Shown here in pieces: positions 13,817 to 58,827 of a stretch of DNA of 64,000 nt. This stretch comes from Rhizodiscina lignyota (Eukaryota). The position numbers and the translations under genes were made by a program. The stretch's first letter is position 1; each line of letters starts with the position of its first letter. The notes under the pieces were generated by a model. It had not been told where the DNA came from, ran no database searches, and saw only the letters and a program-made list of their open reading frames with translations. The stretch lies in contig ML978122.1 of NCBI GenBank assembly GCA_010015805.1, positions 1,026,453 to 1,090,452 on the forward strand. Direction: 5' to 3'.

Positions 13817-15200
13817 ATGAATGGTTTTGCGGACCATGGCCTAAGCGAGGCCGATTTTGGGCAAAAGGGCATCTCCGTTGTATGTTGCTAAATGACGCCT
13901 CTTGGAGAACATAATTACTGACAACTGCTTTAGGCTTCTTTCGACGCCTTCCGTATGTATATTTCGTCTTCGCAAAGAGTCCCTACTTCTTCAATTGTGG
14001 ATATGGGATCGGCCAAACATTGTGCTGACATCCCCTCCAGCAAAGACAAAGCCGACCTATCTCACGAAATCGCGAAGCGGCGGAGCATGGACACTACTAC
14101 TTCTGGTAACAAGTGTATCACTTCTCATATCTGAGACTGGACGATGGTGGGCGGGGACGACACATCACAGCTTCAGCGTCGAGAAGGGCGTATCGCACAC
14201 CCTTCAGATGAACCTCGATGTCGTAGTCACAATGCAATGCAGCGACCTGCACATCAACGTACAAGATGCTGCGGGCGATCGCTTGCTAGCGTCGGAGGTG
14301 CTGAAGAAGGACCCGACGACATGGGAGACGTGGCATCAGAAGAAGGACGTGCACAAGCTGTCAGGCGCCGCGGGGGACGATATGCGCTTTGGAAAGGGTA
14401 ACGAGGAGGATGTACACGACTATCTGAGCGCGACAAGGGGGAGGAAGAGGTTTGCAAAAACACCGAGAATAAAGAGGCACCAGCAGGCGGATGCTTGTAG
14501 GATATACGGGAGCCTGGAAGGGAACAAGGTCCAGGGAGACTTTCACATCACGGCGCGAGGACATGGGTATATGGAGTTTGGAGAGCATCTGGCGCACGAC
14601 AGTAAGTGCTGCCAACTTAATCTAATCCACGTGCAACATTGAACAGAAGGCTAACGAGACATTGCAGCTTTCAACTTTACCCATCAAATCAACGAACTTT
14701 CCTTCGGCCCCTACTACCCATCGCTCACGAACCCGCTCGACAACACAATCGCCTACACCGCCTCACACTTCTACAAGTTCCAATACTATCTCTCCATCGT
14801 GCCGACCATCTACACCGAGGACCCAGGCTTCGTCCGCAACCCCGACCACATCCCCTCCGACCCTCCATCCCTCTCCAACGCACTCTCCCGCAATCCTAAG
14901 ACCATCTGGACGAACCAGTACGCCGTGACGGAGCAGAGCCATTTGGTTGGCGAGGTGAACGTCCCGGGCATCTTTGTCAAATATGACATCGAGCCGATAC
15001 TGCTGCTCGTAAGCGAGGAGATGGGCAGCGGGATTGCGCTCTTGATCAGGTTGGTGAACGTCATTGCGGGTGTCCTGGTTGCGGGTGGTTGGTGCTATCA
15101 GCTCAGCGAATGGGCGACAGACGTGTGGGGAAGAAGAAGCGCGAGGAAGAGGGCGAGTTTGGGCATGTTGCATGGTGGAGATGATAAAGACGATGAGTAG
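13817..15200 (+). CDS. ERV41: ER-derived vesicle protein Erv41
   Basis: Spliced MNGFADHGL...VASFDAFPKTKPTY (introns 13880-13933, 13953-14040, 14602-14667). Motifs CRIYGSLEGNKVQGDFHITARGHGY, FQYYLSIVPT and PGIFVKYDIEPI; two TM helices. Confidence 0.92.
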
Positions 15201-15466
15201 GATCTTCGAGGAACAGTTGCATTGGCATGGCGTTTGGATGGGTGCTTGTAAATGATGTATGCTCCGGAATAAGGATACTGGAAGGCACTTCCAGTCAGCT
15301 TTGATTCAAACTTGATACATATCTACATTGACAGATCACAGTGCTCTAATGGAAGCTATGAGTCGTGGGACCAGACGAATAAGAAGAGACTACTGGAGAG
15401 ACAGAGCTAGTCCTCTTTCAGAGTGGCCTCTTCTACTCCGTAGTCTCTTTAACGGAAGACGAATGA

Positions 15467-15681
15467 CGAGGCCTCAAGCTCTCCCCTCACCAAATCCATG
15501 TTGCATATGATGGGGTCCAACGCATATTAGACGTAAATCAGCCTCGTGGCTGCATTTATGTTCTTTATCAGGCTTATGATTGCCTGTCCCTTATGCGCGG
15601 TGATGAAAATTGCTGCCCGCCAATGCATTCGATTGAAGGCAGGATGTGGATAAGGCAAACGATTCCACTCAAGAACAAGGC
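15467..15681. promoter_or_regulatory. Cluster of 5 YRAGGC/GCCTYR sites upstream of the NCE102-like gene
   Basis: Sites at 15467, 15471, 15541, 15651 and 15676; includes TCAGCCTCGT at 15538-15547. Confidence 0.5.
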
Positions 15682-15808
15682 TGAACATGGCGTAATGAAA
15701 TTACCTACTCTATCCTTGCCCTGATCTTCATTTCTGTCCGAATATTTTCTCAATGCATGCCCGCTTTTTTTTGGGGCAGTTTTCAATCCTCTTCCTTCCT
15801 TATCCAGA

Positions 15809-16522
15809 ATGTTCTCAAAGACGATATCGGTTCTTGTACGTGCCCTCCAAGCCTTGTGGGCTATTTGTGTGCTTGCACTCTCGTGCAATATAATCGCGAA
15901 ATCTTTTTGGAATGAAGTCCCAAGGGAGGCAGGGAATGCTGCCGAAGTTAATTACTGCGTGTTCGTCGGAATCTTTACCATGCTGTCGTGGTTTTTCCTC
16001 TTCTATGAAGCCTTCGCCGATCTACGAGGCCGGTACGACGACATGAAGCTGGTCACACTGGCTATCGACGCCTTGAACACTATATTCTTCTTCTGTGGAG
16101 CTGTGGCTTTGAGCGCCGCTCTTGGAGTGCACAGCTGCGAGAATAGTGAATATACCGATAACAATCCGATCACAAAAACCTCCGACGACACCAACACTCG
16201 GTGTCGCGAGGCTCAGGCTACGACTGCCTTCCTTTGGCTCGGCTTCCTCACGTTTGCTTTTACGACGGCGATGTCAGCGCTCTACTGGCTTGACCCTGAA
16301 CTTGTTCTGCATCGCGAGCACCGACCCGATCCGGAATCTCAAGGCGCTCCACCGATGGCTGCTTCAGAGCCTCGTTTCGACCGCCGTCGTAATAGTACCG
16401 GGACAGATGATGACATTTCAGGAGCACCAGAGACCGTCGGCGATGACGAAAGTCTACCCAGGCTGCATAAGAAGTCGAAGGACATGATCACTGGCACGCA
16501 AGGCGGATGGATTGCAGGATGA
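15809..16522 (+). CDS. MARVEL-domain tetraspan membrane protein, NCE102-like, with acidic C-terminal extension
   Basis: Four hydrophobic segments and NCE102-type motifs VNYxVFVxxF, DALNxIFFF.GAVAL, GVHSC.N..Y and RCREAQATTAFLW. Intronless. Confidence 0.85.
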   Translation: MFSKTISVLVRALQALWAICVLALSCNIIAKSFWNEVPREAGNAAEVNYCVFVGIFTMLSWFFLFYEAFADLRGRYDDMKLVTLAIDALNTIFFFCGAVALSAALGVHSCENSEYTDNNPITKTSDDTNTRCREAQATTAFLWLGFLTFAFTTAMSALYWLDPELVLHREHRPDPESQGAPPMAASEPRFDRRRNSTGTDDDISGAPETVGDDESLPRLHKKSKDMITGTQGGWIAG

Positions 16523-16638
16523 TGATGTGAAGGCTCCTTGTAGTCTTAAGATGGAGAACAAATTGATATTTTGCAGTGTTAGATTGAGCAAGAAGAGGCT
16601 ATGTTCTATGTCGAAGAGCATATTCGCGATTTCTTAAA

Positions 16639-18025
16639 CTACAGCGCAGTCATGCTTAAGCTTTTGTTTTCATCGTCCCCGAAGACAGGTAGATGTATCG
16701 GAAATCCCAACAAAGTCATTGTTCCGACCGGTAATGCAACTTTCAAGCTCGACAGCAGAATCTTCACAAGTTTCTTGCTTTGTAGCTTGTTGCGCTGCTT
16801 CTTCGCTTCTTGAATCTTCAGTTCAACAACGATTCGCTCCTCTGGCTTGATTTTGCTCTCGTTCGCCCTCATAATTGATACGACCCAATCCAAGTCTGGT
16901 TCTTGTGTCGTTGTTGCTGCCTTTGAATTGCTGCTGCTACTGCTTAGAAGGCGTCCATGTATGATTTGTAGAGTGCCGGGTCGTGGAGTAATAGAAGGTG
17001 GCGCTGCGTCCCTTAAAGACCTGTCCGACATGCGAGTCTCGAGGCCCCTGATTCTGCTTGAAAGTTTGTTCTCCATATGTCGCCAGTCTGCGCGTCGTTC
17101 GGCCTTGAGCTGCTCCTGCTGCCGGTGGACCCTCTCCAACTCGTCTTCCATCTTACGCCGCTGCTCACTGAGGATCTCCTGCAGCTCATCATCACGATCC
17201 CTTAAAGCCTGTTCCATCTCCTTCTGTATCTTCTCGTTCTCCTTCTTGTACTTCTCTTCGAGGCGGAGGAGCTCCTCATTGACCACGCGACCCGCAGAAG
17301 TATCCACTAGTGTCTTCTGTTCTTCGACGAGTTCGCGCTGGATATTCAGCGTCACTGAGTTTTTCTTAACGAGGCTCGCGACGATCTTCAGCGCGGACGT
17401 GCGATCTGTGAATCGGTCAATTCGTGACCCTCGGCGAATCATCCTGCCCCAGAAATCCGGGTCTGTCCTCAGTTCTTTCTCACGGCTCTCCCCCATCGCC
17501 TTCTCAACGCTATCCCAGAAGGAAGTTACAAGGATAACGTTTTTTAAAGGCTCCTCGCCACAAATTTCACGGAACATTCGAAGATTTCGAATGGCAGAGC
17601 CTTCCATTCGTTCGTTGTGGATGTTATGCATGTAGATTATACCGTTTAGTCTCGTCTTGTTTTCGTACGACTCTCGGAGCCACTTTGCAATGTCCGCAAG
17701 GACATCTGCCTCGCTTCGATAAGTATCATTAAATCCAGGTGAGTCTACAAGTACGATGTTGTAACCATTATGGTGAAAGGAGTAACCTTTCAGCTCAGAG
17801 GTACCTCCAGCGCAATTAGTTTTGCCACCAGATCGGATGTTATCACTTACAGGATTTGAGCGTATGTCCGATACTGATGGTTTCATCACCGCTCGCTGTA
17901 CGAATAAAAGTACTCTTTCCAGAGCCTGTTACTCCCATGACCGCGATGAAAGCCCATGGTGCCCGTGGATCAATATCCGATGCCGGGCTCATGACGTCGT
18001 CCAATTGAAGGTTGGGATAGCTCAT
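16639..18025 (-). CDS. P-loop GTPase (AIG1/Toc34-like fungal G-domain protein) with coiled-coil and hydrophobic C-terminus
   Basis: Exon 1 has G1 IAVMGVTGSGKSTFI. Intron 17805-17850 (GTAAGT...CTAAT...GAG) joins KSCT (G2). G3 is DSPGF and G4-like is VTSFWD; an E/K/R/Q-rich coiled coil follows. Confidence 0.9.
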
Positions 18026-18089
18026 AGCGATGGGGAAGAAGACGAGACTCGGCGGGCTTCACAGCCATCTCGGTCCATAAAATTTAGAG

Positions 18090-18494
18090 TAAGGCTGGAA
18101 GTCTTTGGAGGACCGGTTCGCAAAATTCAGCCTTGCTGCTGTTGCCTAATGGTGAGGCAAGATAAGGATTCGTCTAGCCTAAGGATTAGGATCGTAAGGC
18201 AAAGATTCAGGACATTATCGGGCCCTTGAAGACTGCATTAGCTATCGAGTGAAGGGAGAGAATATTTGGTGGCGCCAGCCTCGTTGCGAGCGTCCCTGCA
18301 GCAGCATGCATAAGTCAACAACAGCCTTTCGACACTGGTGCTTGGAAGAGGGGAAAGTTGCCTTAGCTCGACGAGGCTGAGGCCATTTTCATTTCAAGTT
18401 GTAGGATCCCACGACAGCCTCGTCCTAGAATGCCTGCCATCGAAGCCAATGACGCAGAAGGCACCTCAGTAAGGTATCTAAGCAGAAGTAAGGC
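18090..18494. promoter_or_regulatory. Cluster of 10 YRAGGC/GCCTYR sites upstream of the GTPase gene
   Basis: Sites at 18090, 18130, 18153, 18195, 18278, 18360, 18372, 18378, 18417 and 18489; includes tandem ACGAGGCTGAGGCC at 18371-18384. Confidence 0.6.
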
Positions 18495-18536
18495 AACAAA
18501 TCAGATGTGAGGATGTCAAACTCATTATTCATTCAG

Positions 18537-20772
18537 TTACCCCATCCAAACGACTGCCTTCTTCCAAACCCTGCGTTTAGAAAAGTCTCGTCCTTCAGCG
18601 TCCCCCACGGCCACCACCGCCGGATGAACAACGAGCTGCACCTCCGCCCCGTCCAAACAATGCTCGTCTTCGCTGAGCTGCAGATTGTGCAACGCATGAT
18701 GCTGCAGAAATTCAGAATTGTATGAAAACCGTAGTGCGCTACCTTTCCTTGGCAAATCCTTCAGCTGGTGGCTGGTAACATGCTGTCTCTGAGTAGATAG
18801 CTTGAAGGCGAGTTCCGCAGCTCGCGTCATGAGCTCTACGAGGTCCACAAAGAACCTCTCCTCTACCTCTTTCTCAGGTACCAAGAATATACGTGCATCG
18901 CTAGAAAGGAACTGGCGCGCAAAGGCTACTGCCGCCGTGGAACGCGCGTTCTTGATGTTGCTCTTCATTTTACGGAGCCTAGATGATGCAACGTTGGGAG
19001 CAGATATTGGGTCCAAAGAGCGAACTGTCTGCACTCGCCACGCGTTGGCTGCTTCGTAGTCAACTGTGATTACCATCAGCTAAGGTCATTCAATATCAAA
19101 TTACACATCGCCTTTCATACTTTCGAGCATATCAATGTAGATATCGTAGAACGAAATCGCTGACTCTGACGGGAGCTCTTCGGATTCCGCTTGAGAGATG
19201 GTGTGTGTTGCGAAGAAAAAGGGATTATCGAATATATTTGTGTAGATTGCATTGCTTAGTGAGGCAAGCAGCAGGATTGATGGCCCCTTGGTACCGAGCT
19301 TCGCAGTTGCAAGTGTCGACGATTGGCCGTTATTAGATCCCGAGACTGGTTCAAGTACCCTCTCCAAGCTCTTCTGCTCATCCGAAGATAGCGCCAGTGA
19401 ATCAATCGCCTCAGTTTTCGCGTATCCCTTGCTCCAAGAGAGCATGCTTTGCCAAATATTGTCTAGTTTCCGTTGGATATCTGCATCTGCTTCCGGCATC
19501 CATTCTGGGTCTTCAGGAAACTGTAAGCTTGGCTCCTGTACCTCGTTTGCGGCTTGGATATCGATTGCAATATTCGGCCGGAGAGCAGCACCCTCAACTG
19601 CAGATTCTAGACGATAGACTTCTTCTTTGTGTTCCTGGAGTTGCTCCTTAAGGATCTGGATCATTTTCCGCGCGTCCCCGAGGTCACGCTCAAGGCCTTT
19701 AGCTTCTTCCTTCTTGCGCACCAGGTCTGAACTCAGCCTCTGTTCGTTTTTCTGGCTTGAAGACAGCTGCCCAGAAACTTTCTCGACCCGCACTTTCTGT
19801 ATTTTCACCTCACTTTGTACAAGATGAAGGTCTTTGACCTGCTGTTCTAGTGCATGGATCTTATCCTTCGAAGATCGCCCCTTCTTGTCATATTTGTCGT
19901 ACTCGCCTTTCCAATGTTGCGCACGCCTCTGATAGAAATCTCGGTCGATTCGCATTTTCCTCAGCTCTTCGTTCAGCCGGCTGATTTCTCCTTTGGATGT
20001 CTGAGTGTCAGTTTTCCACTCAAAAGCTGTGCCGCGAGCCCGTCCCAATTCGGTCGAGAGATGCTGAATTTGATCAGTTTGCCGCCGCCATTCGTCTTGG
20101 AGGCCATTGACAGTGCCCGCCAGCATCCCGTTCTCATCGTCGCGAGCTCCAGCCTGATGCTCTAGCGTTTTAACCTGATATGAAAGTTGTTCCACAAGTT
20201 GGAAGTGAGCGTGAGCAGCGGCTACCGTTGCAGGATCGACGCTCAACTTTTGGTTGTTGATCGAGTGGTTGGGAGTGGATATTTCCATTCCGGTTGCCGC
20301 GCTGTCTGCCGCAGCAAGTTCACTGCTCGAAGCTTGTTGGTTGACCCATGACCCCTGTGGCGGTTGCGTGTCAGTCCGTGCCTGATAATCTATCGATGTC
20401 TGTTGCGGAAGCTGAGATATCATCCCTGGCAGTTGGGCACCTCTGTTAGTGGACTTGCGAACAAGATACATCCTCTGACTGGACTTTTTGGAGGTGTCGG
20501 GTGCGGGTGGCTTCTGAATATCAGCACTTGAAGAGCAAGGGAGCTAGATTAAATTACACGCAAAGAATAGTCGCCAGTCTCGTTTGTCGGGAACTTCACA
20601 CGGTTCAGTCAATGACAATAGCAATGATGTTCGAAAGCTGATGGGCTCTTACCACATGTCGACGTTGCATGTCCTCCCTATCTTCCTCTACGTGCGCGTT
20701 GACGGACTGGCTTTGGCCTCGTTGCTCGGTGAGCGACTTGAAGCCCCCTTTGATTTTGTCGAATGTAGACAT
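18537..20772 (-). CDS. Long coiled-coil protein with conserved-looking C-terminal domain (..VQLVVHPAVVAVG....RRVWKKAVVWMG*), putative GrpE-like Hsp70 cofactor
   Basis: ATG at 20772 (MSTFDKIKGGFK), donor at 20652, probable 36-nt mini-exon, main exon KPPAPDTSKKSSQRMYLV... Intron 19064-19120 joins ORF 19101-20471 to ORF 18537-19076 in frame (MLE-I-DYEAANAWR). The function is inferred. Confidence 0.8.
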
Positions 20773-21367
20773 TGCTTAAAGATCAAGAATCGATGTGGAT
20801 GGTATGTTCGAGCGATGTCTGTGCATGGGAAGTTGAGATATTGTGCTCAGCCATATCCCTCCAAGTCGGGAGCGTAGCCTCGCCCTTCATGCAAGTTTGC
20901 CTTAATCACAAGGCTGACCAAATAGCTGCACCCGATTAATTGAACTGCTGTAGTAAGAATAAGTCTTGCTCTTCAGCACGAGCGAGAGCATCTCTGAAAG
21001 CTCGATTAAATAGACAGGAGAGCGTATTTATCGAAAACACTCAGCTTTAGGATGTATAACCTATATTAGTTAATAAGGATATACATCATCGCGGTTCGAC
21101 ATGTTGCAGCCACGACTCAACTATTTTGTGGCCCACTTGCCTTAGTCTGCCTGACTGATCCATGTACACCTCCACGGCGCTAAGGAGAAAGGTTGGGTTG
21201 CCTGATGTATTTCGCAAGGCTGTCCTTGGCAAATGCGCGCGGTTGAAGCGGCCTCAGCCTCGTGAGGGGTTAGTTCAACCCAGAGCTACCAGTCGCTCAA
21301 GGTATCTTACATCTTTCCACCTTCCCTTTCGATGAATTCTCTGATATGATACTAATGTCGGCGCCCG
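20773..21367. promoter_or_regulatory. Divergent (bidirectional) promoter between the coiled-coil gene and the Hsp70-like gene, with 7 YRAGGC/GCCTYR sites
   Basis: Head-to-head starts about 600 bp apart. Sites at 20877, 20899, 20909, 21139, 21215, 21251 and 21257; GGCCTCAGCCTCGT at 21250-21263. Confidence 0.6.
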
Positions 21368-23393
21368 ATGAATGGGACGCGGTCGTCGTCGCATTTCTCC
21401 TTCCGGGGCGGAATGGCTGCTGCAGGAGCGTACAAACTGATTGTTGGTGTTGATTTTGGTACAACGTACACAGGTCAGTTGAGTTTCGATAAAGTGCCTC
21501 TAGCAATCTCTGTTAACGATTAAAACCTAGGCGTGAGCTTTGTGCTTTCAACAAGAGCTCCAAAGGATGTATATGTCATCCGGTCATGGTCCGGCGCCAG
21601 CAGGCCGTCGGACAATGCCTGGAAAACCCCATCTCGTATTGCCTATGCCGAAGAGAACCCCAATCACGACAAAGATCAGATTGGGTTTGACGTTACTCCG
21701 GGAATGACGAGTTACTCGTGGTTCAAGCTTCTGCTTGACCGGGCCGCTGAGCGTAGATTCGATGATCCGGATCTAAGGGATATAGAAGGTCCAGGCATGT
21801 TACGACTGCCACGGAATAAGACTGCCCAACAAGTGTGCGCCGACTTCCTACGGGGTATATACCAGAAGACTTTTGAGGAACTGAACACGCGAATGCTGGC
21901 CAGCGTGGTTAACGCGATGCCTATTGATTTTTCATTCACTGTCCCGGCGATATGGTCCGACAAGGCGAAAGCAGACACCATCGCATCCGCAAGAGCGGCT
22001 GGCTTTGGTTCGCGACCTGGAGACACAATTACTCTCATAACAGAGCCCGAGGCAGCGGCAATATCAGTAATGAAGTACCTTGCAGATGATGGAAACGACC
22101 AACTACAGGTAAGAAGGATCACTCATGTGACATAGGTTCAAGGCTAATCCCTCGAAAGAAAGGAGATTCCATACTCATCGTCGACTGCGGCGGCGGGACT
22201 ATAGATCTCACGGGTTATGATATCGAACGTGTTGTTCCGGAGCTCGAATTCAGCGAACTGCTTGTTGGAGAGGGCGGAAAGTGTGGAAGCACACACATCG
22301 ATCGACGATTCCATCAGTGGATGTCAGATACGTTTGGAGCAGCCTTCGATTCCGTTCCGTTTCCGAAAAAGGGCCCAGGCAGCAAATTCATGAGAGAATT
22401 CGAATCGATCAAGGTAAACTTTGGCTCCGAAACCGTAGACCAAACATATGAGATACCATTGTTGCTCCGTGGGGTCCAGTCGTGCCCGAATTACGACATG
22501 GAGGAGACAATGGTTAAGTTTTCCAAGTTAGTACAAGCCCCAATTTTTCTATGAGCTGAGAAGCTTACATATAGTGCAGACGGGATCTGCAAGAGTTTTT
22601 TGAGCCAGTGGTCCAAAACGTCATTGGTTTAATTGAGCAGCAGGTAGCCCAGGCCAACATCGAGAAAGGCAAATCAATAAATAAGATTATCCTGGTAGGC
22701 GGGTTTGGTGACTCCCGATATCTTCTCGACGCAGTCAGAGAATGGGGACGACTCAATGGGAATTTTGAAATCATCTGCCCTGTATATCCGTTAGTATCTC
22801 GGATCCTTCTTTCATATTTCTTACTAAGGTATACTAGGCAAGCCGCAATCGTCATTGGCGCTAGCATACGAGGTCTTGGTGGGCCTGGAAGTCAGCCAAG
22901 ATCGCGCAAATGCCGCCGTCATTATGGATTCCAGCTCGATTTGCCATACGATGAGATAAACGATGACAAGCGGCATATGTACCACAACGAATACGACCGC
23001 AAAAGGTACACTAGAGGAACCATGGTGTGGAAGATACCTATGGGGTGTGAAATTGATGAGAATACCCTTATAAAACAACATATCAAGAAGCCATGGTTCA
23101 AAGGAGAGTCTTTACAATTCACACTCGGGTTGTACTCCAGCAGTCTTGACCCGCCACCAAAGCGAGAGGAACATCCACGTGTCCATAAAGTTGGAACGAT
23201 TAAAGTAGACCTCACGGACAAAGACTTGAAGCGGTTCAAGAGGAAATGGAAAGTCACGCAAGACCGTTGGGTCTGGCAGCTGGAATATGAGATACAGATC
23301 TTGTTCGGCCAAAGAGAAGGAACACTCTGCTTCCGCGCTAAATGTGGTGACAACTTCATTGGAAGTACTCAAATCGAGTATGCTCGTGAATAA
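21368..23393 (+). CDS. Non-canonical Hsp70 (HSPA12-like actin-fold ATPase)
   Basis: Motifs IVGVDFGTTYTG, TVPAIWSD, EPEAAA, VDCGGGTID, GKCGSTHID and LVGGFGDSRYL. Introns 21474-21530, 22109-22158, 22527-22579 and 22790-22837. No helical lid or EEVD. Start is 21368 or 21413. Confidence 0.92.
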
Positions 23394-23839: not shown

Positions 23840-24279
23840 CTACCCTTGCCTACGACCAAGTCAGTCTTCGCATGAGAAATCCAACCGTAGGGACCTTACC
23901 TCTGTTTGTGCTTTGGATTCTTGCTACATATAATGTACACATACTTCTTCTTCCTTCGAACACTCTGAGACAGGGTTAGCTGTTTTCTCTCATGCAGTGG
24001 TTCGAGTGCTCTAACCTTGCAGCCATCACATAATTTCTTCACTGATGTTCGCACCTTCATTCCCCTGGCTTGCGTAGCTGTATTGCTGGTCGAAGCAAGA
24101 GCATTATTCGATCGGATCGTCGGTCTGGCGAGGGATGAGAGGAGGCTACTAGCTGAAGTTCGAGAGGTGAAAGTCCTTGAAAGCGAGCGCTGAGAATAGC
24201 GGACTGCGGTGAATGTCGCGGTTTGAAGGGAGGAGAAGATGGTCTGCCGCGCTCGCAGCAAAAGCGGTCTGCCGAGCAT
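23840..24279 (-). CDS. RTC6: Mitochondrial ribosomal protein bL36m (L36)
   Basis: Arg/Ser-rich presequence, then GMKVRTSVKKLCDGCK / SVRRKKKYVYIICSKNPKHKQR / QG*. Two introns; stop TAG at 23840-23842. Confidence 0.93.
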
Positions 24280-55958: not shown

Positions 55959-58827
55959 TCAAAAGTCGTATCCTGCCGCAACTCCTGGCGCCGGTCCCTC
56001 CAGGTCGACTCTCTCAACTCCACTCTTCACCTCTCCACTCTCTCGTACCAGGTTACTAAAGTATTTCCTGGCAACGTCACTCTCATACCTTAGTTTGTCC
56101 GTCTCTTCTTTCTTCCCTTGCAGCTTTTCGAAGTTGCGCTGCAAGCCGACTCGCAAGTCGCCAGCGGGATAGCGCAGTGCCCGCCGGACCTCCTTTGCAA
56201 TACGCGCAGAGTTTTCGTGGGTGTAGTCAAGACGATTGAGCTCTGAAGAGAGTTTCGCGGATAGACGACGAGGTAGAGATTGTGGGATTGATGCCAGAGC
56301 ATATGATGCAGCAAGGACGACTGCAAATATTAGTTCGGCCCAACAAAGGATACAATTGGCGTGGGCAATGCTTACCTGTTAAGACGATACCTGGGATAAC
56401 CATTCTCCTCAGATTCTGAGTGCCCATTACCTTTCCGACCGCCAGCGCACTATCAATCCAGTGAGTACCGCCCATCAGTCTTCCGCCAACAACGCCGGCG
56501 ACGGTGAGGGCCATGCTAGTTCCAGCGATTTTTTCTTGTCTCTCCCACAGATTGGCAAAGTCGAAGAAGTCAGCAAGCTCAACGTCGAAATCAACCTGTT
56601 TGGCCAAGAGGTCCTTTCGGCGCATGAACATTTGATCGGCGCGGAAGGTGAACTCTGCAAAGCCATTGCCCAGATGCAGTAGTCCTAGATTCTTAATAGT
56701 GTTGACACCCTGAATTGTTCGTTGACGAGCGTGTTCCTCACAGGATGACACCGTGTCGACAATCTCTTGGAGCATGGCGGCTTTGATGTCATCCGCATAC
56801 TCATACGCAGACAGAAGACCAGGATACTGTATTCCGAGGTCCCGCACGCCGACATTGCCGATGACTTCGTCAAGGGTTTTGCGCGTTTGGTCATAGATCT
56901 CTTGAGCTCCATCCTCGACTTCCTTGTTCGCGTCCTCTCCGGCCTCCGATGTGGCTTTCTTTGATTGGTCGAGTTGAGGGACGAGGTCCTGCAGCTCCTT
57001 TGTGACGCGATCTAGCTCTGACTGTGCTACGTCCCGATTAACTGTAGCCAGACTCTGCAAATCTCCCAAAACATTCATAAGGTACGTCTTTGCAGGGGCG
57101 AGCTTGGATCGCGCACGCTTCTCGAGGACAAAACGACGCAGGGAGGCCTCTAGCTCTGCGAAGTCACGCAGCTTTTCCTTTTCCTTCCCCTTGCCTTTCT
57201 CACCAGGCGATCCAGGCTCTCCATGCTTTCTTGTCTCATCGTCATCGTCTTCTGGCTCATCGTCGGGACTCGGGAAGTCTGGGCCAGACCCACTTCCTCC
57301 ACCTCCACCACTTCCGTCTGGTGGGCCGGGTAATTCTGCTGGCGCGACAGGTATTGCGTTCGACGAAACAAAATGCACCAATTCTGATGACTCCTTGAAA
57401 GTAGCTGGACTCAGTTGGTGGACCTGCTTCAGAATCATTTCTTGACACCTTCTCTTATCGCGTATATTGTCGAAGCCGTTGACAACCATGAAAATATATG
57501 CCTTTTCCATTGCCGCATTGAAGACAAACTCCCTGGCGCTCTGTGTGAAATGATTCGCAGCGGACACAACGAAGACTACGACGTCAATTTCTTCCTGGCG
57601 CGCGAATACAGCGGTGGTTTTGAGACTGTCGGCGTTCAAGCCAGGAGCATCGATTAAAGCAATATCGACGACGCCATTGTTCAGTAGGCTCTCATCGACG
57701 GCGCGGATGTCCTTCACGTAGACCTTGCATTGGCTGTACTTCTCGTTATCCGTGACGATCTGCTCCAATTGCTTGAGAGCGTAGACATGATAGGTGCTTT
57801 CGTTGTTCCGGTCATATATCATATTGATGGGAACAGCATGGACTTCTTCAATGCCACCGTTTTCTCGAGAGTCCAACACCTCACAGAATATTGATGTGCA
57901 CGGTTGTTGGTCTTCTGGCAGGACTTTGCGGCGGAGAAGGGCGTTGCAGAAGGTCGATTTGCCGGCATTGAGATCGCCAGTAACGAGGACTTTGCTTGAG
58001 GTGTCTTCGATACGCTCACGGAGAGAGTAGAGATGACGAATTGTTTTGACGATTTGACCATCCAGAAGAGCAGCGATGGATTGCTTCTCGAGAGAGTGGA
58101 CGAGGTCTGTCTGCGATGCAGCACCTAATTTCAGATCAAGCTTGAGAATCGAAAAGTCTTGAGCTAGTTGAGGCGAGACTAATCGTGGCTCCGGTACTGA
58201 GCGCTTTTCTGCTGTAGAACTTGACTCGCCATGCGTGCCATCATCACCTATTGATGTTTCTGCTCTTCGAGGAGCACTTGGTCGACTAGGAGATGCTTGC
58301 TGCGGCTCTTGTGTGGGTTCAAGGGTCGATTGGGTGTGTTGGAGGTTAGGCCGTGAAAAGCGTCGCTCAGCTGGTGCTTGTTCGGGTGCTCTTTGAACAG
58401 AAGGGTAGTGCGCAGGCCATTGTTTGTTCATCTCTTGCAACTTCTTCAATGTCTCGACCGTCCTGGTGATGGCTCTTCCCAGTGCAGTCTTGTTCTGATT
58501 GTAGTACAGTTGATGAACATGGCTCGCCAATATCTTCCTGTCGTTGTCTCCTATCGCATTCGGCTCACCAGGCGTATGAATGGGTGTATATCTGTCTCCC
58601 GTCATTCCAGGGTGGAATCCACTCGCGACGCTCCCATCGCCATCGGTGATGCTGCCACCATACCCTGAATCATCCAATATTGACTGCAAACGACGCGCAC
58701 TCTCTGAAGTCCCACCAGTGCCGACAGTCATGTAATTTGGTCTTCGATAACCACCATTCTGCGGTTGTTCGTCCGGTGGCACCCGCGACGAGCCACCAGC
58801 GGAAGACGATGCTTCCTCCTGGCTCAT
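55959..58827 (-). CDS. FZO1: Mitofusin, transmembrane GTPase Fzo1
   Basis: Motifs TGDLNAGKSTFCNALL, DQQPCT, DAPGLN and VVNGFD; TM region. Intron 56321-56375 joins the final exon in frame. Confidence 0.95.

Follow-up and report, generated by a model that had tools for sequence, protein, structure and literature searches.

A conserved fungal gene trio encoding an Hsp70-like ATPase, a coiled-coil protein and a putative tail-anchored GTPase, seen from a locus of Rhizodiscina lignyota

Introduction

HSPA12-type Hsp70s are widespread across animals, fungi, protists and bacteria, and to our knowledge they have no agreed cofactors or mechanism. The question of which partners such an ATPase may have is raised by a locus of the fungus Rhizodiscina lignyota, where an Hsp70-like gene stands beside genes for a coiled-coil (CC) protein, a P-loop GTPase and a four-pass MARVEL membrane protein. 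The locus lies in a stretch of 64,000 nucleotides (GenBank assembly GCA_010015805.1, contig ML978122.1, forward-strand positions 1,026,453 to 1,090,452), referred to here as the window. A first-pass annotation, made from the sequence alone, had proposed that the four genes form a co-regulated, operon-like module.

The answer reached here, to which we assign a probability of about 0.6, is that the Hsp70-like, CC and GTPase genes of the locus are a conserved, co-regulated fungal trio with products that work together at a membrane. The three genes are kept together in many fungi, are sometimes fused and share a promoter motif, so they probably encode one undescribed machine; that the three proteins act together is in itself very probable. 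No published description of an Hsp70-like/CC/GTPase combination was found in open-access full text.

Gene content of the block

The four genes proposed by the first-pass annotation are all present and intact, between an ERV41-like gene and the gene for mitochondrial ribosomal L36 (RTC6), and were mapped as follows (proteins are denoted below by P-numbers and loci by L-numbers):

15809-16522, + strand: MARVEL four-pass membrane protein gene; single exon, 237 amino acids (aa); Pfam MARVEL
16639-18025, - strand: GTPase gene; exon 1 17851-18025, intron 17805-17850 (46 nt), exon 2 16639-17804; read from the sequence
18537-20772, - strand: CC gene; four exons, 690 aa; exact match to public protein P0121
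21413-23393, + strand: Hsp70-like ATPase gene; five exons, 590 aa; public protein P0001

The exon maps bear out the head-to-head arrangement of the Hsp70-like gene and the 690-aa CC gene, with start codons 640 bp apart, and the GTPase and MARVEL genes are tail-to-tail.

Conservation of the gene neighbourhood in fungi

Repeated co-location in other fungi, which the annotation had named as something that would support a system, was seen in three named genomes and in 13 of the 75 loci of a metagenome sample. Consecutive locus tags carry the Hsp70-like, CC and GTPase genes, with the CC gene in the middle, in Trichoglossum hirsutum (GP486_002912/13/14), Bathelium mastoideum (M1822_008371/72/73) and Penicillium canariense (N7482_002188/89/90). 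In another T. hirsutum assembly the tags of the GTPase and Hsp70-like genes are three apart on a single contig, and in Lepidopterella the same two genes share a contig of 12 kb. Pairs on one contig were also found in Amniculicola, a Phaeosphaeriaceae sp., Clohesyomyces and Penicilliopsis, a weak observation where the contigs measure hundreds of kb. No paper mentioning six orthologue locus tags was found in open-access text, supplements being outside the scope of that search.

The metagenome sample comprised 75 loci around GTPase relatives and was searched with tblastn and with a hidden Markov model (HMM) of the CC domain. In 18 of them the GTPase gene has a CC-domain gene immediately upstream in the same orientation; in 13 of these 18 an Hsp70-like gene diverges from the CC gene, with order and strands as in the window, and the remaining five are cut off by the contig edge, either within the CC gene or shortly ahead of it. 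When the frames of 12 loci and the window were compared all against all, no families other than the three of the trio were common to more than two of these sequences. The other shared frames lay on the opposite strand of trio genes or on near-identical contigs, and the MARVEL gene was common to L001 and the window only. In a quick maximum-likelihood tree of the GTPases, one clade of 20 rows (Shimodaira-Hasegawa-like approximate likelihood ratio test, SH-aLRT, 99) contained 10 trios (window included), five contig-end loci, two fusions, two loci with short upstream sequence and one partnerless locus, and a second small clade with the trio held L011-13 and L034.

The genes that flank the block in the window are the following:

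13902-15200, + strand: ERV41-like gene (ERGIC_N and COPII-ERV domains)
23896-24279, - strand: mitochondrial ribosomal L36 gene (RTC6)

A tblastn search with the ERV41, L36 and EF-G genes gave no match in the 75 loci, and the trio therefore sits in different genomic contexts. Judged by gene order, the conserved unit is three genes (Hsp70-like, CC and GTPase) and not a chance neighbourhood. Of the operon-like four-gene module first proposed, the conserved and probably co-regulated part stands, on synteny, fusions and the motif in relatives; the number of genes does not, the conserved unit being of three with an optional MARVEL gene.

Elsewhere in the window, a frame of 866 aa at 56227-58827 (- strand) encodes a dynamin-family GTPase domain (Dynamin_N, E 1.7e-17); this frame, unrelated to the four-gene block, probably belongs to a housekeeping gene of mitofusin/Fzo1 type.

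Gene fusions and a bacterial parallel

Two natural fusions join the products of these families. At L019, of which L020 is a duplicate with the same fusion, a 569-codon frame without stops links the GTPase to the Hsp70-like protein: residues 9-249 comprise the GTPase domain with its coiled coil (44% identity to the window protein, E 8e-66), and residues 291-556 the N-terminal half of the Hsp70-like ATPase (34% identity, E 1e-35), with a P-loop exon just upstream of the fusion frame. At L049, a GTPase paralogue, a coiled coil and a MARVEL domain follow one another in one frame; the MARVEL domain matches the window MARVEL protein by BLASTP (E 1e-11) and Pfam MARVEL (E 2.6e-6) and has its last helix in the next exon. 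Nothing else in the data speaks as strongly as these two fusions for joint action of the GTPase with the Hsp70-like protein and with MARVEL proteins of this family.

They also bear on a rival explanation, in which the only thing that keeps the genes together is regulatory DNA in common (one bidirectional promoter, one stress element) and the products are independent stress proteins that form no complex. The head-to-head Hsp70-like/CC pair agrees with it, as does the shared and conserved promoter element CAGCCTYG described below, but two independent fusions (L019/L020 and L049) are hard to explain without joint action, and the trio retains its order and strands from one class of Ascomycota to another, with flanking genes that are different every time. 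We hold this explanation to be quite unlikely.

A frame upstream of the L019 fusion (L019:3651-4529, + strand) ends in the P-loop; its approximately 250 preceding residues have Cys/His pairs resembling C2H2-type zinc fingers and no Pfam match. This frame may be an N-terminal extension of the fusion protein.

A bacterial parallel comes from a Victivallales genome bin (L080:1082-10520, + strand), one case among five bacterial HSPA12-like loci. It encodes a 1,124-aa protein that combines an Hsp70-type nucleotide-binding domain (NBD; E 3.7e-11) with a dynamin-family GTPase domain (E 5.7e-11), and the fusion gene and three further dynamin-family GTPase genes line up on one strand. The coupling is of the same kind as in the fungal fusion of GTPase and Hsp70-like protein.

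The Hsp70-like ATPase

The gene was resolved into five exons:

~21413-21473, 21531-22108, 22159-22528, 22580-22791 and 22838-23393, + strand: exons of the Hsp70-like ATPase gene

The five exon pieces of P0001 map to the window letter for letter, with 99% identity over exon 2. Pfam HSP70 (PF00012) matches the protein with 44.7 bits against a cutoff of 20.6, and the family profile matches DnaK over residues 4-379 only (E 2.8e-21). The nucleotide-binding motifs (phosphate-1, phosphate-2 and adenosine) are intact: D14, G16, K52, E192-P-E-A-A196 and D229 are invariant in 36 sequences, in which D222-C-G-G-G-T227 is nearly invariant (at least 90%).

An AlphaFold2 (AF2) model (predicted local distance difference test score, pLDDT, 88.5) shows the NBD followed by an all-beta part at residues 430-586, and in Foldseek the model aligned with two-domain DnaK/BiP structures at template modelling (TM) scores of 0.57-0.60 over approximately 610-630 columns. 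On this model the beta end is a substrate-domain-like fold, a statement at the level of fold, with substrate binding predicted at most. The protein ends ...QIEYARE directly after the beta domain, and neither a helical lid (the alpha part of the substrate-binding domain, SBD-alpha) nor an EEVD motif is present, as judged from the sequence end, the AF2 model and the lack of a DnaK match beyond residue 379. Because the protein ends after the NBD and beta domain, it is an Hsp70 with a substrate-domain-like part and without lid or EEVD; protein end, DnaK-profile range, AF2 model and Foldseek thus agree with the first-pass description of an Hsp70 lacking the canonical lid and EEVD. The link to HSPA12 comes from automatic source names only, "heat shock 70 kDa protein 12A/12B" being attached to some relatives.

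Another Hsp70-like protein of R. lignyota, P0012, is 50% identical and is recorded on the same 3.32-Mb contig, outside the window.

The coiled-coil partner and its possible relation to GrpE

The CC protein consists of a disordered N-terminus, a coiled coil at approximately 150-360 and a conserved globular C-terminal domain at 392-690, and a hydropathy scan found no hydrophobic segment in it. An exhaustive HMMER search returned 467 representatives at E<=1e-3 and 205 at E<=1e-10; among the 150 matches listed, the similarity falls almost entirely in the C-terminal half, roughly residues 375-690. A word-index search with the CC exon matched only the protein itself. No Pfam family covers the C-terminal domain, and the N-terminal half gave coiled-coil noise only.

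The AF2 model of residues 392-690 (pLDDT 91.3; predicted TM score, pTM, 0.89) has nine helices followed by a small beta part. Foldseek found nothing at E<=1e-3 for this model in the PDB, and a PDB sequence search with the CC-family profile gave coiled-coil noise only. The two best structural matches of the domain were both GrpE entries. A Foldseek-independent structure search placed human GRPEL1 in complex with mitochondrial Hsp70 (9bls_B) third among 48,161 chains, with Z 5.9, root-mean-square deviation (rmsd) 4.6 and 104 residues aligned, and a re-ranking of the Foldseek list placed E. coli GrpE (9a81_A) at rank 1 of 994, with Z 5.8, rmsd 3.6 and 99 residues aligned; both Z values are below 8, a range that, by the search tool's own note, is uninformative and may mean a shared arrangement only. 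Both alignments span model residues 1-299, from the first helix through the terminal beta part. The GrpE-like partner of the first-pass annotation thus has weak structural backing (Z 5.8-5.9) and no support from sequence; the label is plausible and unproven for the C-terminal domain, and that the partner is GrpE-like in function is close to an even call, slightly on the doubtful side.

The comparison with DnaK or mitochondrial Hsp70 and GrpE is instructive in both directions. As in those systems, an Hsp70-type ATPase adjoins, here as a neighbouring gene, a partner built of a long coiled coil, a helical bundle and a small C-terminal beta part, and the fungal ATPase keeps the NBD and a beta substrate-domain-like fold. 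However, the helical part of the fungal partner is about twice that of GrpE, the partner has no sequence match to GrpE, the ATPase lacks lid and EEVD, no J-protein gene lies in the fungal cluster, and the fungal module has an obligatory third member, the GTPase, which no DnaK-GrpE system has.

Another comparison is with the bacterial HSPA12-like locus L077, where a coiled-coil partner likewise stands beside an HSPA12-like Hsp70: a downstream protein of 299 aa has a faint match to Pfam GrpE (E 0.093), and hhalign aligned its last 42 residues weakly with the end of the fungal CC family (P 0.006, probability 6%); its alignment with a second neighbour in L077 was weak as well. The HMM of the fungal CC domain found no match in the five bacterial HSPA12-like loci. 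The fungal partner thus differs in having no detectable sequence homology to the bacterial one, and the fungal module adds a tail-anchored GTPase, the promoter element and, in places, a MARVEL protein. At another bacterial locus, an HSPA12-like fragment (L076:2397-3386, - strand) lies approximately 2.3 kb from a CRISPR-associated TM1802-family gene.

Another reading of the CC protein would make it a fungal relative of Mieap (PF16026) and of plant GIL1/IRKI (PF24994, DUF641), coiled-coil proteins with a conserved C-terminal domain, and would place the module in organelle (mitochondrial) quality control. In the Atlas, the nearest named clusters by features to residues 392-690 of P0121 are GIL1_IRKI_C (0.82) and MIEAP (0.77), and structural comparison gave TM 0.48 for MIEAP and 0.53 for a DUF641/GIL1 cluster, all of them leads only; a basidiomycete cluster of G-domain proteins (631 aa), possibly a fusion with the CC domain, reached TM 0.68, again a lead. 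Yet every Atlas score falls under that resource's own bar for naming a family, neither family is among the 25 Pfam families listed for 53 members of the CC alignment at E<=1, and no paper linking the names was found in open-access text. This relationship is very improbable.

Further observations concern the distribution and gene structure of the CC domain. A giant coiled-coil protein of 1,652 aa (P0274) ends in it (residues 1419-1649, E 4.7e-16), and the domain is therefore used on coiled coils of very different lengths. At profile position ~120 the domain is interrupted by an intron both in the window (19062-19121) and in most relatives (L001, L003, L005, L010, L011-13, L016/17, L034, L037 and L048), and L004 has no intron there. 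A second CC-domain protein of the same species, P0207, is recorded on the same 3.32-Mb contig outside the window. P0190, a GTPase relative of 650 aa, was considered as a fusion of GTPase and CC domain and rejected (hhalign probability 0.6%).

The GTPase

The GTPase is composed of a G domain, a coiled coil, a conserved RANESKI box and a C-terminal hydrophobic segment. Exon 1 holds the Met start and encodes the P-loop GVTGSGKST, and a DSPGF motif is also present. Across the alignment the G1-G3 motifs of a TRAFAC GTPase and the tail are conserved: GVTGxGKST occurs in 15 of 16 rows with an aligned N-terminus, the exception being the metagenome protein P0129, and the DxPGF box is nearly invariant. 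The moderately hydrophobic tail was kept in all seven proteins scanned (hydropathy 1.5-2.25), and on this hydropathy we infer that it is a tail anchor. The public model of the protein (P0122), labelled "partial", has 288 aa and lacks the coiled-coil end and the tail anchor; it looks incomplete.

As for its family, relatives at E<=1e-3 number 79, and named matches are scattered over approximately 20 species, in several ascomycete classes and one basidiomycete. Pfam MMR_HSR1 passes its cutoff (40.2 bits vs 21.9), whereas AIG1 (PF04548) stays below its cutoff of 27 in P0122 (25.3 bits), P0124 (18.9) and P0131 (24.8); a precomputed database table assigns PF04548 to many of the relatives. The nearest solved chains are IRG, GIMAP and Toc proteins, at E 0.2-1 only. 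"AIG1-like" therefore needs restating: the G1-G3 motifs and MMR_HSR1 match uphold a GTPase of this broad group, and membership of AIG1 proper lies under the Pfam cutoff.

GIMAP1 and GIMAP5 carry a C-terminal membrane anchor, and we know of no GIMAP encoded with an Hsp70. The fungal protein resembles the GIMAP/AIG1, IRG and Toc34-type GTPases in its P-loop G domain, in the coiled coil after it, in its putative C-terminal membrane anchor and in tandem arrays of paralogues, and differs in its score under the AIG1 cutoff and in the marginal E values of the solved GIMAP and IRG structures.

These resemblances underlie a reading of the trio, with or without the MARVEL protein, as a fungal immune or non-self-recognition system, in which two switches, the GIMAP/IRG-like GTPase and the Hsp70-like NTPase, would detect an invader or an incompatible cytoplasm and set off membrane damage or containment. 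The weak matches to immunity GTPases (IRG/GIMAP, alongside Toc), the tandem arrays (e.g. L026, L035 and L065), as in immune gene families, the scattered distribution of named matches and the differing genomic contexts of the trio all fit such a system. Two sources point the same way: a 2026 preprint stating that, in prokaryotic conflict systems, the place of STAND NTPases can be taken by HSP70-like NTPase domains (10.64898/2026.10.19.760177), and a paper on coral transcription under immune challenge that has GiMAP/IAN expression in its title and also mentions HSPA12 (PMC3723955). Against this, none of the four proteins and no part of the conserved neighbourhood has an effector, toxin, HET, NACHT or repeat-sensor domain, PADLOC returned weak noise only, from coiled-coil (JetC/LmuB) and P-loop (LeoA/BC) models, and the tandem-array paralogues have no Hsp70 or CC partners. 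An immune role is improbable.

The arrays themselves hold distant GTPase paralogues, in 2-3 copies within 10-20 kb, without Hsp70-like or CC genes (L024-L029, L035, L036, L039, L040, L044, L046, L047, L057, L059 and L065).

The MARVEL protein as an optional member

The MARVEL protein has four hydrophobic segments and a long acidic/Ser-rich C-terminal tail, and Pfam MARVEL (PF01284) matches residues 4-154 (E 1.7e-20, 73.9 bits against a cutoff of 32.8). An orthologue convergent with the GTPase gene was found in L001/L002 only, which represent one close relative (Pfam 84 bits), and the MARVEL gene is a facultative member of the module. The "NCE102-like" label holds as far as the MARVEL domain goes; NCE102 itself is a candidate identity at most, the nearest Atlas clusters being generic "MARVEL domain-containing protein". 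The four-pass MARVEL domain is common to this protein, to Nce102/Fhn1 and to other fungal MARVEL proteins, but the window protein, with 237 aa and its long acidic tail, differs from Nce102, which has approximately 170 aa. In the Atlas the protein starts at residue 58; Pfam and the L001 orthologue favour a start at 15809.

A shared promoter motif and its candidate regulator

The upstream regions of the four genes share one element, CAGCCTYG, which occurs in all three intergenic stretches of the block, as the first-pass annotation had claimed of a single cis-motif:

15201..15808: upstream region of the MARVEL gene; two CAGCCTYG sites, 15539+ and 15676-
18026..18536: upstream region of the GTPase gene and downstream region of the CC gene; four sites, 18128+, 18276+, 18372- and 18415+
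20773..21412: divergent promoter region of the CC and Hsp70-like genes; three sites, 20909-, 21215- and 21255+

The word CAGCCTCGT occurs seven times in the window against 0.64 expected, a count that none of 100 shuffles reached, and five of the seven sites are in intergenic DNA of the block. The looser CAGCCTYG occurs 16 times against 6.4 expected, and nine of the 16 sites fall inside the 1,759 bp upstream of the four genes (2.7% of the window), with a binomial p of 9e-11; this value is post hoc, since these regions are the ones from which the motif was derived. When the window was excluded, the k-mers ranking highest in intergenic DNA from nine relatives were CAGCCT (9/9 loci), CAGCCTT and CAGCCTTG, the last in six of the nine loci with eight occurrences vs 1.2 expected. 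L001 also has a CAGCCTYG site at ~12235, outside the 5' end of its MARVEL match and frame by some 130-260 bp.

The presence of CAGCCTYG in all the promoters points to one transcription factor, perhaps of the Ca2+/calcineurin stress pathway. Five of the nine block sites are CAGCCTCG, the reverse complement of CGAGGCTG, and four are the T form. On the other strand CAGCCTYG reads CRAGGCTG, and its C form CGAGGCTG contains GAGGCTG, the common motif of yeast Crz1-dependent genes according to a source that gives GTGGCTC and GAGGCTC as the calcineurin-dependent response elements (CDREs) of Aspergillus (PMC2873923). The likeness to a Crz1/CrzA element is thus the yeast core within the C form; the difference is that the commoner form in the relatives, CAAGGCTG, is not a published CDRE. 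Crz1 would be a doubtful candidate for the regulator of the module.

A second word, TGCATG(C), was enriched in the trio intergenic regions of the relatives (8/9 loci, 28 occurrences vs 8.1 expected), and GCATGCAT lies upstream of the window GTPase gene at about 18300.

Discussion

The evidence assembled above favours a trio whose products would work as one machine. One core part would be the Hsp70-type ATPase, which lacks a lid, keeps its ATPase motifs intact and ends in a beta part resembling a substrate domain. The CC protein would serve as an adaptor whose C-terminal helical-plus-beta domain is the dedicated cofactor of the ATPase, possibly a nucleotide-exchange module of GrpE type, and it may reset the nucleotide state of the ATPase. 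The GTPase, a putatively tail-anchored relative of the AIG1/IRG/Toc group, would be placed by its tail on an organelle or endoplasmic reticulum (ER) membrane, where its coiled coil and that of the adaptor would recruit the Hsp70-like ATPase; the GTP- and ATP-driven cycles might then remodel or extract membrane-bound clients under stress. The MARVEL protein would be an optional fourth part here and in the nearest relative, and elsewhere a MARVEL domain would replace the GTPase's own anchor. In this scheme we infer the physical contacts, the nucleotide-exchange activity, the cellular location, the inducing signal and the clients alike.

Several observations weigh against the proposed trio or one of its parts. 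With regard to conservation, some metagenome loci are duplicates of one organism (L001/2, L005/6, L011-13, L016/17 and L019/20), and the trios therefore amount to approximately nine independent cases; 55 of the 75 GTPase relatives, more distant paralogues, are without either partner, so the GTPase family also works alone; and L022, inside the trio clade, has approximately 4 kb of upstream sequence and no partner. In L004, L005, L010, L013, L017, L034 and L037, the 4.8-10 kb that follow the GTPase gene contain no MARVEL gene. With regard to the cofactor, the GrpE Z values are below 6 and tie with those of unrelated helical proteins (channel helices); Pfam GrpE (PF01025) matched none of 11 fungal CC C-terminal pieces at E<=10, in a search whose HMMER filters may hide very weak matches; and GrpE is not among the 25 Pfam families listed for the 53 CC-alignment members at E<=1.

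The remaining points concern the promoter element, on which the probable co-regulation of the trio is based. In the relatives, 11 of 23 CAGCCTYG sites fall in the trio intergenic DNA (9.5% of the sequence), with a p of 2.5e-6 that is partly circular because the Y was chosen after the relatives had been seen. The strict 8-mer CAGCCTCG is weakly enriched there, with three of 10 sites in the same 9.5% (p ~0.06), and the T form, AAGGCTG, is not the published Crz1 core.

A bolder extension of the trio model is that the orphan HSPA12-type Hsp70s are the ATPase arm of an ancient two-motor membrane machine, in which a GrpE-derived coiled-coil adaptor would load and reset the lid-less Hsp70 and the second motor would be a membrane-bound GTPase of dynamin/AIG1 type. 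The coupling would be old and recurrent, as the fungal trio and fusions and the bacterial protein of L080 might suggest, and its fungal switch would be a dedicated CAGCCTYG-binding factor acting after membrane or Ca2+ stress or infection. We regard this extension as speculative and, on balance, unlikely.

For the biology of these families, the trio would be a first case in which an Hsp70-type ATPase is linked genetically, and in some genomes by fusion, to a GTPase of the immunity and membrane-remodelling group. The C-terminal domain of the CC protein defines a large uncharacterised fungal protein family without a Pfam entry, represented by 467 clusters. A fixed set of partners, comprising a candidate GrpE-type adaptor and a putatively tail-anchored GTPase, would offer concrete and testable handles on the cofactors and mechanism of HSPA12-type Hsp70s.

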